A stretch of DNA of 5,273 bases. Source: a virus. Lineage: Duplodnaviria > Heunggongvirae > Uroviricota > Caudoviricetes. Below are positions 1 through 3,784 of the stretch, in pieces. Under the pieces are notes generated by a model that searched no databases, was not told the DNA's origin, and saw only the letters and a list, made by a program, of their open reading frames with translations. The first letter of the stretch is position 1; every line of letters starts with the position of its first letter. The position numbers were made by a program, and so were the translations under genes. The DNA is taken from the IMG/VR virus record IMGVR_UViG_2636415418_000002. One strand, given 5' to 3'.

Positions 1-162
1 AAGTTGGAGTCATTACCAGAACTTTTCGATATGTCTGTGTTCCCGTCAAACCCTTTGAAAGATGGCATAACAGAAATGCTTTCTGGGATAAAAGAATTAG
101 CAGGCCGCAGTAGCACCGCATACGGAATGACTCCTCTTGTGATTTTCAGGAAAATTCAGTAA
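1..162 (+). CDS. 3' end of an upstream CDS (start lies outside the window); product unknown
   Basis: Frame 1 is open from position 1 to TAA at 160-162 (...AYGMTPLVIFRKIQ*), with typical enterobacterial codons, and is followed 7 nt later by a strong intrinsic terminator. It is absent from the ORF track because there is no start codon in the window. I do not recognise the peptide. Confidence 0.4.
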   Translation, partial: KLESLPELFDMSVFPSNPLKDGITEMLSGIKELAGRSSTAYGMTPLVIFRKIQ

Positions 163-168
163 GTTCAG

Positions 169-196
169 ACCCGGCCACCGTGCCGGGTTTTCTTTT
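169..196 (+). terminator. Rho-independent terminator (6-bp all-GC stem CCCGGC/GCCGGG, 6-nt loop, TTTTCTTTT tail)
   Basis: Seen directly: stem 170-175 pairs with 182-187, followed immediately by a T-tract at 188-196. It sits 7 nt after the stop of the upstream CDS. The reverse complement lacks a T-tract, so it is unidirectional. Confidence 0.75.
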
Positions 197-324: not shown

Positions 325-367
325 AACAACTTATGTTGTTGACGATAATACAACTATAGTTTTAAAT
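325..367 (+). promoter_or_regulatory. Candidate operator/promoter: perfect palindrome AACAAC-TTAT-GTTGTT (325-340) overlapping a -35-like TTGACG (339-344), with a weak -10-like TTAAAT 17 nt downstream (362-367)
   Basis: Hexamers and palindrome read directly from the sequence. The -10 is a poor match (4/6), so this is weak; a 6-bp inverted repeat in an AT-rich region can arise by chance. Confidence 0.15.
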
Positions 368-644
368 AAGTTCATCGCAACAACACAATCATACGGCAAC
401 CACCGGATTCACCGTTGCGATGACCGCTTAGATCCGCAGCTTGAATTTCAGCAGGCTTTGGGGAGTGCGAGGGGTGAAACGGACGCGTGAACGTCGGTGT
501 GACCAGCTGAAATCAACACAACACTTTATACCTCAGTCGCTTCAACGAGGCGGCTTAGTTATGACAACCGGCGGCCATCCACCGCCTGAATACGCGCAGA
601 AGTCTCTATATGTTCAGCAGCCCAGCTTACGGGCAGGAGTTTTT

Positions 645-851
645 ATGGTTCATCAACATTACGGAACGCAGACCGTTAATCGCGGTGCGGTCATGCCAGG
701 AATGCTGGTCAAACACAAAGATGGTACCTGGACTGCATCAGCTAATTTACGCGGACGGCTTTATCTGCATCGCGGCATCGAGCGCACTTATACCCGTGAC
801 TTGCTCGTGGAAGTTTTTCTCGACGGACGCGGCAACGGCCTGAATCACTAA
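645..851 (+). CDS. Hypothetical small basic protein (69 aa), occupying the position that kil/cIII take in lambda
   Basis: ATG at 645 is preceded by AGGAG (635-639) with a 5-nt spacer. Codon choice in this frame (ctg, cgc, ggc, gac, aac) looks enterobacterial, whereas the overlapping 610-843 frame is rich in rare codons. The track start at 441 is a TTG and an in-frame ATG at 561 has only a weak SD, so the true start could be 561. Product not recognised. Confidence 0.4.
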
Positions 852-926
852 CCCCCTTTCCTGTTTTCCTAATCAGCCTGGCATTTCGCGGGCGATATTT
901 TCACAGCCATTTTCAGGAGTTCAGCC

Positions 927-1223
927 ATGAACGCTTATTACATTCAGGATCGTCTTGAGGCTCAGAGCTGGGCGCGTCACTACCAGCAGATCGCCCGTGA
1001 AGAGAAAGAGGCAGAACTGGCAGACGACATGGAAAAAGGCCTGCCCCAGCACCTGTTTGAATCGCTATGCATCGATCATTTGCAACGCCACGGGGTCAGC
1101 AAAAAAGCCATTACCCGCGCATTTGATGACGATGTTGAGTTTCAGGAGCGCATGGCGGAACACATCCGATACATGGTTGAAACCATTGCTCACCACCAGG
1201 TTGATATTGATTCAGAGGTATAA
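927..1223 (+). CDS. gam: Gam, RecBCD nuclease inhibitor (98-aa short form)
   Basis: The translation [21 protein letters not shown]...[10 protein letters not shown] matches, from memory, the C-terminal 98 residues (GamS) of phage lambda Gam. AGGAG at 915-919 lies 7 nt upstream of the ATG. Position immediately upstream of bet matches lambda synteny. Confidence 0.9.
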
Positions 1224-2691: not shown

Positions 2692-2846
2692 CGCATCCTC
2701 ACGATAATATCCGGGTAGGCGCGATCACTTTCATCTACTCCGTTACAAAGCGAGGCTGGGTATTTCCCGGCCTTTCTGTTATCAGAAATCCACTGAAAGC
2801 ACAGCGGCTGGCTGAGGAGATAAATAATAAACGGGGGGCTGTATGA
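2688..2846 (+). CDS. Small hypothetical protein (52 aa), positional equivalent of lambda orf60a
   Basis: Not in the ORF track. Hand translation gives [52 protein letters not shown]. Its ATG overlaps the exo stop (ATGA at 2688-2691) and its stop overlaps the next gene's ATG (ATGA at 2843-2846). Lambda likewise has a small ORF overlapping the exo stop. Confidence 0.5.
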
Positions 2847-3400
2847 CTGATTTCACCGGAAGCAATACTCCTGCCGAACATCGCGACAGCTGGCGCACAC
2901 CACCAGAGATTTTTGCTGCGCTTAATGCAGAGTTCGTTTTTCAACTTGATGCTGCAGCCAGCGAAAAAAACCGACTATGTCGGCTTTTTATCTCACAGGA
3001 GCAGAACACATTAACCACTTCATGGCCTGAAGCAATGGGATATGCCTCTGGTTATGTCTGGTTGAATCCACCATACAGCAATATTTCCCCTTTTGTGAAA
3101 AAGGCAGCCACTGAAAACAAATTCAGTAGTGTGGGATGTGTAATGTTATTGCCTGCTGACACATCTGTCGGATGGTTTCATGAAGCGATACAAACCGCCA
3201 GTGAGGTCAGATTCATCACGGCAGGACGACTGGCATTTATTAACCCACTCACCGGGAAACCCGTCAGTGGAAATAATAAAGGCTCGATGCTCATTATCTG
3301 GCACCCATACCCCCGTACACACTGCCACTTTACGACCGTTGATCGTGGAGAGTTGATGGCGTTCGGCTCAAGGATTCTTGCCCGTCGGGAGGCTGCATGA
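2843..3400 (+). CDS. Putative phage DNA N6-adenine methyltransferase (small Dam-like orphan MTase), 185 aa
   Basis: Contains the (D/N)PPY catalytic motif in WLNPPYSN, and an N-terminal WRTPPEIFAALNAEFVFQLDAAAS segment that resembles the WxTP...LDxAA signature I associate with the phage 'Dam' methyltransferase family (Pfam PF05869, from memory). No adjacent restriction endonuclease candidate is visible. Confidence 0.75.
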   Translation: MTDFTGSNTPAEHRDSWRTPPEIFAALNAEFVFQLDAAASEKNRLCRLFISQEQNTLTTSWPEAMGYASGYVWLNPPYSNISPFVKKAATENKFSSVGCVMLLPADTSVGWFHEAIQTASEVRFITAGRLAFINPLTGKPVSGNNKGSMLIIWHPYPRTHCHFTTVDRGELMAFGSRILARREAA

Positions 3401-3480
3401 CAACCACGGAATGCATTTTTCTGGCAGCGGGCTTCATATTCTGTGTGCTTATGCTTGCCGACATGGGACTTGTTCAATGA
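3397..3480 (+). CDS. 27-aa hydrophobic micro-protein (single predicted TM helix)
   Basis: Not in the ORF track. Hand translation gives MTTTECIFLAAGFIFCVLMLADMGLVQ*. A strong SD, GGGAGG (3386-3391), lies 5 nt before the ATG. The ATG overlaps the MTase stop and the stop overlaps the orf71 ATG, both as ATGA. Codons (ctg, gcg, ggc, gcc, gac) are better here than in the alternative long frame. Confidence 0.45.
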   Translation: MTTTECIFLAAGFIFCVLMLADMGLVQ

Positions 3481-3692
3481 CACCTCAGCAGGAAAACGCC
3501 CTTCGCAGCATTGCCCGTCAGGCTAATTCTGAAATCAAAAAAGCCAGACAGCAGTTTCCGGATAAAAACGTCGATGACATTTGCCGTAGCGTACTGAAGA
3601 AGCACCGCGAAACGGTAACGCTGATGGGATTCACACCGACTCATTTAAGCCTGGCGATCGGCATGTTAAACGGCGTCTTTAAGGAGCGATGA
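3477..3692 (+). CDS. Hypothetical protein, 71 aa
   Basis: ATG at 3477 overlaps the orf27 stop. Translation is MTPQQENALRSIARQANSEIKKARQQFPDKNVDDICRSVLKKHRETVTLMGFTPTHLSLAIGMLNGVFKER*. The track's 3378 start is a TTG and the in-frame ATG at 3411 lacks an SD and would overlap orf27. Product not recognised. Confidence 0.55.
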   Translation: MTPQQENALRSIARQANSEIKKARQQFPDKNVDDICRSVLKKHRETVTLMGFTPTHLSLAIGMLNGVFKER

Positions 3693-3784
3693 ACATGAAA
3701 AGCAAAATCATCAGGGAGCTACAGGCTCCTTTTTTATTATTCGCATTCACCCTCAAGCGTATTAACCAACAATTCAGGGATTAA
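3689..3784 (+). CDS. Possible 31-aa micro-ORF (uncertain: it contains a terminator-like hairpin)
   Basis: Not in the ORF track. Hand translation gives MNMKSKIIRELQAPFLLFAFTLKRINQQFRD*. Its ATG (3689-3691) overlaps the orf71 stop (3690-3692) as ATGA. A hairpin plus T-tract inside it is the competing explanation for this stretch. Confidence 0.3.
   Translation: MNMKSKIIRELQAPFLLFAFTLKRINQQFRD
3714..3741 (+). terminator. Terminator-like hairpin (GGAGC-tacag-GCTCC) followed by TTTTTTATTATT
   Basis: Seen directly: a 5-bp stem (3715-3719 pairing with 3725-3729), extendable by one G-U pair, then six T at 3730-3735. The stem is short, so this is a weak intrinsic terminator at best. It overlaps the orf31 candidate. 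Confidence 0.3.

Follow-up and report, generated by a model that had tools for sequence, protein, structure and literature searches.

KilR of the Rac prophage (Escherichia coli K-12, b1352, 73 aa) has a β-sheet core with unstructured ends of 7 and 12 residues, and its C-terminal tail is needed for toxicity in a manner dependent on tail length (PMC12482147). A low dose of KilR dissolves Z-rings and a high dose also mislocalises MreB (PMC12482147); filamentation or Z-ring loss upon expression, suppressed by extra FtsZ, is known within the family for Rac KilR only (PMC12482147; Conter 1996 as cited there and in PMC5793797). In Rac, kilR is silenced by Rho/NusG (PMC5793797). Bacteriophage lambda encodes a 47-aa Kil that inhibits FtsZ in a ZipA-dependent manner (PMC3961180), and the phi80 protein PHI80_42 is annotated as 'FtsZ inhibitor protein Kil'.

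The put RNAs of HK022 and HK639, both N-less phages, consist of two adjacent stem-loops of ∼60–70 nt in the early-left transcript. Attenuation can be controlled by leader ORFs that contain consecutive Pro codons, as exemplified by mgtP of Salmonella mgtCBR, and attenuators of the mgtP type combine a short ORF, three Pro codons and hairpins upstream of the regulated gene.

Here, we analysed a stretch of viral DNA of 5,273 nt (Caudoviricetes; IMG/VR record IMGVR_UViG_2636415418_000002), hereafter the window, which represents the 5.3-kb early-left (pL) operon of a lambdoid prophage and reads along the direction of transcription.

RESULTS

Layout of the operon and its promoter

The ORF at 645–851, hereafter kil, lies immediately 5′ of gam-bet-exo (Table 1), i.e. 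in the slot where lambda has kil/cIII, as a sequence-only reading of this DNA had placed it. An AT-rich operator/promoter region lies between the moron terminator and this ORF, and in close relatives cI and then defence-like morons are located directly 5′ of the pL/kil region. No N gene was found between cI and the kil ORF in the window or in close relatives, which makes kil the gene that pL transcribes first. The methyltransferase gene is followed by small ORFs, a TraR/DksA zinc-finger protein, DUF4222 and then xis and int, and a strong intrinsic terminator lies farther along the operon at 3713–3740. The DNA match to lambda-like and Stx phages starts at the end of kil, with the matches spanning window positions 845–930 only. 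At least 80% of the segment 150–930 was covered in 2019 of 5426 complete E. coli genomes (∼37%).

Table 1. Positions and strands of the features in the window
Feature	Position	Strand	Remarks
Moron gene tail	4–162		Left end of the window
Intrinsic terminator closing the upstream cI-moron operon	167–196	+	9-bp stem and T run
Probable pL	339–367	+	−35 TTGACG (339–344), 17-nt spacer, −10 TTAAAT (362–367); inferred from sequence
5′-terminal stem-loop of the leader	372–423	+	10-bp stem, 372–381 with 414–423; MFE and centroid folds
Probable untranslated leader, pL to kil	374–644	+	No conserved ORF; 96% identical across different immunity regions
Hairpin 1	527–563	+	Long imperfect stem pairing SD-like GAGG (547–550) and ATG 561–563
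Mini-ORF MTTGGHPPP...	561–644	+	In the window fused in frame to kil, stop lost; in most other variants a separate ORF of 15–22 codons
Hairpin 2	570–586	+	GGCGG-CCAUCCA-CCGCC, nearly invariant
Conserved motif GCGCAGAAGTCT / GCGCAGAAGUCU	594–605	+	3′ of hairpin 2
Small hairpin GCCC-AGCUUAC-GGGC	620–634	+	Directly 5′ of the Shine-Dalgarno sequence; predicted folds
Shine-Dalgarno (SD) AGGAG of kil	635–639	+	5-nt spacer to ATG; unpaired in predicted folds
kil CDS including stop	645–851	+	68-aa cell-division inhibitor of the KilR/phi80-Kil family, by homology
Mosaic joint	845–930	+	100% identical to the kil-gam junction of many lambda-like/Stx phages
gam	927–1223		Next gene after kil
bet	1229–2014
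exo	2011–2691
DUF1317 gene	Between exo and the methyltransferase gene
Dam-type methyltransferase	2843–3400

The probable pL is situated among operator-like palindromes (ACAAC..GTTGT, ∼313–365), and phages of the other immunity type have TATTAT at the same −10 position. A consensus promoter scan omitted this pL because position 2 of its −10 element is not A. Phages that differ in immunity become similar abruptly at position 375, close to +1, and the probable promoter together with this onset indicates that kil is preceded by a leader of ∼270 nt. The first part of the leader (374–520, ∼150 nt) occurs only in the group of N-less E. coli phages, and no informative covariation was detected for the 5′-terminal stem-loop in the available variants. 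Fold z-scores of the leader were unremarkable (−0.8 to −1.45). The leader of Rac kilR holds the sRNA KilS, whereas the window leader has no sequence similarity to it, the candidate homology being a chance 9-mer alone. An AgvB-like anti-sRNA role for the CA-rich runs (381–394 and 513–526) was likewise rejected, as those sRNAs lie downstream of PR′ and no Rfam match was obtained.

kil is a gene under purifying selection

The sequence-only reading had reported a 69-aa ORF with a strong SD at 645–851. Both the ORF and its SD are real, but the product, running from ATG 645 to the stop TAA at 849–851, has 68 aa, since the 207 nt make 69 codons with the stop counted. The description as a basic protein rich in Arg, His and Gly was borne out, with 7 Arg, 5 His and 2 Lys versus 5 acidic residues accounting for the basic character, together with 9 Gly. 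A search of viral contigs with the Kil protein returned 100%-identical copies only, hence no diversity, and relatives were taken from eight loci of Citrobacter, Silvania, Enterobacter, Kluyvera, Pseudocitrobacter and phage HK225. Among these, the protein is 79–87% identical but the DNA just 73–76%, and a dN/dS of 0.03–0.2 was determined across genera, with synonymous sites saturated. A purine-rich SD occurs at the equivalent position in all kil relatives, and GCC/GGC or GCGC/GCGC stems are found in relatives at the place of the small hairpin preceding it in the window. The ORF at 645–851 is a real gene under purifying selection, far beyond a chance frame.

Kil belongs by sequence to the KilR/phi80-Kil family

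Kil matched phrog_294, 'Kil protein for bacterial septation inhibition', over its full length (residues 1–68, E 1.3e-37), and the KilR model NF008465 of NCBIfam (PRK11354, 'FtsZ inhibitor protein') with 63.1 bits and E 1.8e-17. The latter score is below the curated cut-off of 92, which indicates a sister subfamily and not a KilR orthologue. In pairwise comparisons, Kil showed 36% identity over 61 aa to Rac KilR (BLASTP, E 9e-13), 40.9% to phi80 Kil (tblastn), 38% to an ORF of HK639 and 36% to kilR of Stx2a phages. Judged from these similarities, Kil is a true member of the KilR/phi80-Kil family in a sister subfamily to KilR. The suggestion that genes in this slot are host-directed and inhibit FtsZ agrees with the homology to Rac KilR and phi80 Kil.

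The label 'unrecognised' that the ORF had been given does not hold, as there is clear homology to a characterised protein and the exact protein already has a name. RefSeq WP_000233576.1, 'phage encoded cell division inhibitor protein', has exactly this amino-acid sequence, which is also present on at least 1000 public contigs and, as 'cell division inhibitor protein', in UniProt. Each of the 120 database homologues listed is assigned to Pfam PF27398 by precomputed annotation and is named 'cell division inhibitor protein'. The kil ORF is an ordinary, already annotated and common prophage gene with nothing new about it as a gene. Searching Pfam in a release without PF27398 matched no family to the 68-aa or the 136-aa translation at E ≤0.1, and so no match to the lambda Kil or CIII families, in line with the earlier statement that the protein resembles neither. 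Given this lack of similarity, Kil would be a functional analogue of lambda Kil in the same slot. A PDB sequence search with Kil gave no match.

An AlphaFold2 model of Kil predicts a small six-stranded β-barrel with strands over residues 7–59 (pLDDT 84.7) and low-confidence ends (pLDDT ∼65–67 in the first and last ∼10 residues). This is a generic SH3/KOW/Tudor-like barrel, pointing to no particular target. The modelled layout, a β core with floppy N- and C-terminal tails, matches the published description of KilR.

As a separate observation, the C-terminal tail of Kil, DGRGNGLNH, is unlike the KilR tail GRDGLPVKAESW.

Translation starts at ATG 645 in all probability

The GC-rich character of 441–644, noted earlier, was confirmed (0.50–0.63 in 60-nt windows), and the kil frame is indeed open upstream, up to TTG 441 (136 aa), although the form starting at ATG 561 has 96 aa and not the 97 that had been counted. 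This region had been left as either an N-terminal extension or a structured leader. The start ATG and the N-terminus MV/IHQHYGT are common to six genera, and the upstream frames are unrelated or stopped, e.g. by an in-frame stop 36 codons upstream of the kil ATG in IdasGreatGrand and by in-frame stops 4–5 codons upstream in HK225 and the Enterobacter prophage TMH.L2. The 136-aa version and Perceval's 139-aa version are thereby eliminated. An N-terminal extension is contradicted by these unrelated or stopped frames in other genera and by a sub-variant of the same leader that is out of frame, while a structured leader fits the folds, the covariation and the fixed hairpin shape described below. 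The segment 441–644 therefore appears, from sequence comparison, to belong to the ∼270-nt untranslated leader and not to the Kil protein.

A 96-aa Kil that starts at ATG 561 in this phage lineage and carries a 28-residue N-terminal extension, MTTGGHPPPEYAQKSLYVQQPSLRAGVF, was considered separately. Its frame is open in >100 loci, i.e. in most members of this phage group, a GAGG is located 10 nt 5′ of ATG 561, and the 96-aa sequence is found on at least 1000 contigs, having been called by several annotators, including in the IdasGreatGrand record, and named 'prophage Kil protein' in O157:H7 TW14359. However, ATG 561 and its GAGG are base-paired within hairpin 1 in every variant, and outside this group the equivalent ATG opens a separate ORF of 15–43 codons that ends before or overlaps the next gene start. 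In three loci with the same pL leader (L123, L131 and L056) the ATG 561 frame is out of register with kil, the 28-residue extension is not conserved as a protein, and kil retains its own strong SD and ATG; we thus regard the 96-aa form as very unlikely. Gene callers have assigned lengths of 68, 83, 95/96, 98, 102, 104, 114 and 116 aa to the Kil family, a spread that reflects the open leader frame and not biology.

Altogether, it is highly probable that the locus encodes a 68-aa Kil of the KilR/phi80-Kil family that starts at ATG 645, is the first pL gene, blocks division as its homologues do and is preceded by an untranslated leader. Upon loss of the repressor, Kil would be made from pL with Gam, Bet and Exo and would, by homology, block septation through interference with FtsZ ring assembly; MreB may also be affected, as it is by KilR at higher dose, and the expected outcome is filamentation of the host in lytic development. 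The FtsZ/MreB target and the physiological effect would be those of homologues (KilR and phi80 Kil) with 36–41% identity.

A two-hairpin element is widespread in early-left operons

The leader in front of kil contains two hairpins and a conserved motif (Table 1). Hairpin 1 always has the shape ((((.((.(8–9 bp, 3–4-nt loop).)).)))), in which CAUA at the base pairs with UAUG, containing the AUG at 561, and the SD-like GAG(G) lies inside the stem. This shape is preserved over at least eight unrelated upper-stem sequences, and with the AUG paired it was found in all 51 of 51 variants. A 6-nt linker connects hairpins 1 and 2, and a variable spacer of 5–29 nt precedes the motif at 594–605, which is kept in all four distant contexts despite differing frames relative to ATG 561.

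In BLASTN comparisons with distant phages, the element (525–612) was 80–95% identical in unrelated contexts, namely HK225, three Enterobacter phages and a Klebsiella phage, and the window and HK225 share 95% identity in the element but only 74% in the adjacent kil CDS. Pattern scans of IMG/VR yielded at least 120 loci with the element, and a scan by an independent downstream motif yielded 53 loci, further or overlapping ones; over the scans, the element was present in >170 phage and prophage loci (overlap possible), including phi80, HK639 and HK225. Hairpin 2 was exact in 50 of the 53 loci fetched without reference to it, the exceptions being single substitutions; phi80 has another single substitution, and HK225 and the Enterobacter and Klebsiella phages have hairpin 2 unchanged. 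A covariance model located the phi80 match directly after N-tL1A (L017:2492–2550, 63 bits) and a single copy in each of two complete genomes, HK225 and Perceval, and found the element absent from Rac, HK022 and eight kil loci of other genera.

The pL-sense strand carries the element in all cases, and 107 of the 129 loci have a kil homologue on that strand 50–950 nt farther downstream. Mostly, the element is preceded by an intrinsic terminator, whose place is taken in the window by the pL leader. A T-run is found 3′ of hairpin 2 in some variants but not in the window, and the HK639 record labels hairpin 2 'terminator'. A search of Rfam 15 with the whole window gave no match at E ≤1, and neither the hairpin-2 sequence nor the MTTGGHPPP peptide was found in the searchable literature; the two-hairpin element appears undescribed.

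Two other assignments were tried and rejected. Reading hairpin 1 as boxA/boxB (nut) failed because other variants do not keep the boxA-like CGCUUCAAC. As to an antisense promoter or sRNA across the element, no plausible −35/−10 was seen by eye and the consensus scan lists none on either strand; moreover, the variable spacer would break a promoter spanning the element, making it unlikely. The antisense covariance-model score was just ∼20 bits.

The genomic contexts bear on the idea that the leader is an HK022-type put-like antiterminator RNA replacing N. No N gene lies between pL and kil, the two stem-loops begin at ∼+1 as in putL, a strong intrinsic terminator is present downstream in the operon (3713–3740), and it has been speculated elsewhere that put operates in N-less lambdoid phages (PMC12315714). 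Against this, no similarity to HK022 putL/putR or HK639 putL was found in sequence or by covariance model, the whole window has no Rfam match (although Rfam may hold no put family), and neither the pR operon nor any other part of the Perceval and HK225 genomes carries a second copy. The element is found also in phi80, after N and tL1A, and in HK639, after its own putL and a terminator, and at these places, downstream of N or of putL plus a terminator, an antiterminator would be redundant and misplaced. With the unremarkable fold z-scores arguing in the same direction, we consider a put-like function very improbable.

Hairpin 1 is maintained by compensatory changes

Covariation was tested against 500 shuffles, with 51 distinct variants in a MAFFT alignment made unforgiving on purpose. 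In hairpin 1, 94.2% of cells were paired versus 86.6% in shuffles (0/500), and double compensatory changes were found in 69 cells versus 23 in shuffles (0/500), whereas slid controls gave only 32–51% pairing. RNAalifold independently predicted the same two hairpins. G-U pairs are frequent, which assigns the structure to RNA transcribed in the pL-sense direction.

These data weigh on a reading without any regulatory role, in which the block is a remnant of a compound tL1-type terminator and/or a 'linker' kept by homologous exchange. Consistent with it, the element stands directly after an intrinsic terminator in phi80, HK225, HK639 and the Enterobacter/Klebsiella phages, it lies at module boundaries ahead of different genes in different phages, and mosaic joints are abundant in the region. 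But the compensatory changes that keep hairpin 1 argue for selection on structure, as does a hairpin 2 that, just 10 nt away, is near-invariant in hosts from Escherichia to Klebsiella and Enterobacter; neither is explained by passive sharing, so that we hold this reading to be unlikely.

The mini-ORF keeps its nucleotides rather than its peptide

The ATG at 561 opens MTTGGHPPP in all variants. All substitutions in codons 1–9 of this mini-ORF are non-synonymous (T to I, G to S, P to S and P to T), and the wobble and loop positions never vary; with only non-synonymous changes in these codons, it is the nucleotide sequence that is conserved and not the peptide. In many variants the mini-ORF ends as ...(S)AEVLY-stop inside the conserved motif (594–605), and spacers of 5, 17, 20, 23 and 29 nt, all 2 mod 3, keep the AEVLY-stop frame, but three other spacer classes, including the 7-nt spacer of the window, shift the frame of the mini-ORF. 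PHROGs gave no match for the mini-ORF peptides.

A role for both hairpins and the mini-ORF is offered by a reading, compatible with the kil assignment, in which 527–612 is a cis-regulatory RNA gating kil and the downstream early-left genes. Hairpin 1 would hold the start of the Pro-Pro-Pro mini-ORF shut. Once this ORF is translated, the ribosome, delayed at Pro-Pro-Pro, would melt the terminator-like or pause hairpin 2 and cover the leader, and RNA polymerase could then escape premature termination, Rho-dependent or intrinsic. Such a gate accords with the compensatory covariation and the hairpin shape fixed over at least eight stem sequences, with the many G-U pairs that mark a sense-strand RNA, with the element being better conserved than the kil CDS between the window and HK225 (95% versus 74%), and with the constant pL-sense orientation and the kil homologues 50–950 nt downstream in 107 of 129 loci. 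The T-run after hairpin 2 in some variants, the 'terminator' annotation in HK639 and the five spacer lengths that preserve the mini-ORF ending also fit, and leader ORFs with consecutive Pro codons are known in attenuation. The homologous kilR of Rac is silenced by Rho/NusG (PMC5793797). On the other side, the leader is not markedly C-rich over G, the window lacks the T-run, three spacer classes shift the mini-ORF frame, the changes in codons 1–9 are all non-synonymous so that the peptide is not the conserved thing, the invariance of the hairpin-2 loop and of the wobble positions is unexplained by the model, and the element is absent from the eight kil loci of other genera. In this specific form, the gate is the role that we favour for 441–644, but we judge it somewhat unlikely. 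The invariance of the hairpin-2 loop suggests a sequence-specific partner.

DISCUSSION

The Kil of the window and Rac KilR are homologous and similar in size, with a β-rich core, as modelled for Kil, and short flexible tails, and both genes lie in an early-left operon upstream of recombination genes with a long non-coding leader 5′. They differ in the C-terminal tail, in that Kil scores below the cut-off of the KilR model, and in their neighbours, ydaE-racC-recE-recT for Rac kilR versus gam-bet-exo in the window. The phi80 Kil shares the PHROG and the operon position, and the two-hairpin element is upstream of it too; phi80 differs by having N, nutL and tL1A/B before the element and two extra ORFs between the element and kil, whereas kil of the window follows pL directly. 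Lambda Kil occupies the same slot 5′ of gam, with the same annotated or inferred block of the FtsZ ring and filamentation, but it is an analogue and not a homologue, and the window DNA is lambda-like only from the kil stop onward.

For the leader, we tentatively propose that 527–612 (∼60–90 nt) may represent an undescribed class of cis-regulatory leader RNA in early-left operons of lambdoid phages of Escherichia, Enterobacter and Klebsiella, in which hairpin 1 would act as a lid, conserved in structure, over the start of the Pro-Pro-Pro mini-ORF and hairpin 2 in sequence-specific recognition or in termination; we put this forward as a possibility at less than even confidence. The element resembles the put RNAs in its two adjacent stem-loops, but differs in being single-copy and in co-occurring with N in phi80 and with putL in HK639. 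With mgtP-type attenuators it shares the short ORF, the three Pro codons and the hairpins upstream of a gene, but no alternative pairing was identified and the mini-ORF peptide is not conserved past nine codons.

For the gene itself, the gain is a corrected annotation, i.e. a Kil of 68 aa starting at 645, with the 96-, 136- and 139-aa records read as gene-caller artefacts. A third of E. coli genomes carry the element ahead of kil, as do model phages. If the proposed class is real, hairpins 1 and 2 together would decide the entry of transcription or translation into the toxic kil region, and N-less phages such as this one would carry the element fused directly to pL. The leader element would then bear on how the early-left operon runs in N-less lambdoid phages, including how the terminator at 3713–3740 is passed, and it is a candidate for keeping toxic Kil-type genes quiet in lysogens and releasing them on induction.

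A two-hairpin RNA element in the kil leader

An RNA element composed of two adjacent hairpins was identified in the leader between pL and kil, and it is shared by over 170 loci of phages or prophages, including phi80, HK639 and HK225. Hairpin 1, inside which an AUG is buried, displays covariation, with one shape being kept over at least eight stem sequences, while hairpin 2 (GGCGGCCAUCCACCGCC) is nearly invariant among the loci carrying the element and is labelled 'terminator' in the HK639 record. No family for the element was found in Rfam, and no description of it in the literature searched.

A putative mini-ORF, MTTGGHPPP..., opens in the element and comprises 15-22 codons in most variants, often ending in AEVLY-stop, and its frame is often kept by the spacer lengths among the variants. 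The putative mini-ORF is joined in frame to kil in the window and continues into longer ORFs in CobraSix and in some of the IMG/VR loci. In phi80, a good SD (AAGAGG) and an ATG were also observed 3′ of the element, opening an unannotated putative ORF of ~70 codons (L017:2627-~2836), hydrophobic on reading (MSDLELGLKIYALWFVGTFLLD...), that overlaps the annotated feature 'rho-dependent terminator tL1B'.

In the K-12 Rac prophage (L315:4406-4503), kilR likewise has a long leader, which holds the documented sRNA KilS (b4833), and the intrinsic terminator in which KilS ends precedes kilR by ~175 nt. This leader and that of kil in the window are analogous in position but unrelated in sequence.

Features of the window and copies of the two-hairpin element
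Feature	Location	Remarks
C-terminal end of moron protein	window 4-162	weak PHROG 9699 match
Two-hairpin RNA element	window 527-612	model R1 (covariance model) match 527-586
Two-hairpin element, phi80 copy	L017:2492-2550	
Two-hairpin element, HK639 copy	L016:~2215-2267	
Two-hairpin element, HK225 copy	L004:3501-3580	
Putative mini-ORF MTTGGHPPP...	window 561-644	equivalents in HK225 (L004), phi80 (L017) and loci L018 and L019
Unannotated hydrophobic 27-codon ORF	window 3397-3480	MTTTECIFLAAGFIFCVLMLADMGLVQ
Strong intrinsic terminator	window 3713-3740	within pL operon; AGGGAGCUACAGGCUCCUU then U-run

Terminator and small ORF further down the pL operon

The strong intrinsic terminator of the pL operon follows the orf that ends at 3692 and precedes the TraR/DksA gene, in a phage from which the N gene is absent; transcription from pL may extend to xis and int, or these may use another promoter. 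Further upstream, the 27-codon ORF is flanked by two ATGA overlaps, one shared with the stop of dam and the other with the start of the following ORF (3477). It resembles a small membrane peptide made by translational coupling. In L001 this gap carries no RefSeq annotation, and a PHROG search with the peptide yielded no match.

Upstream region and mosaic joint

At the moron position, a DUF6414 family protein is annotated in one E. coli genome matching this far upstream; other relatives have a HipA-like kinase together with DUF3037 there, or different genes. The moron terminator and the operators are separated by a tract (190-330) that is extremely rich in C and poor in G (GC skew -0.5 to -0.8); it lies on the sense strand for any read-through out of the cI operon and is rut-like in composition.

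ACAAC..GTTGT palindromes are found in the operator/promoter region (300-375), and the immunity/leader joint lies at 375, or at 408 in two related loci (L175 and L178). A sharp mosaic joint is located at the kil stop codon (845-930). On its 3′ side, many lambda-like and Stx1a/Stx2 phages match the window at 100% DNA identity, and these phages have an unrelated, lambda-type kil 5′ of the joint. Among relatives, the same leader is joined to at least three different immunity regions.
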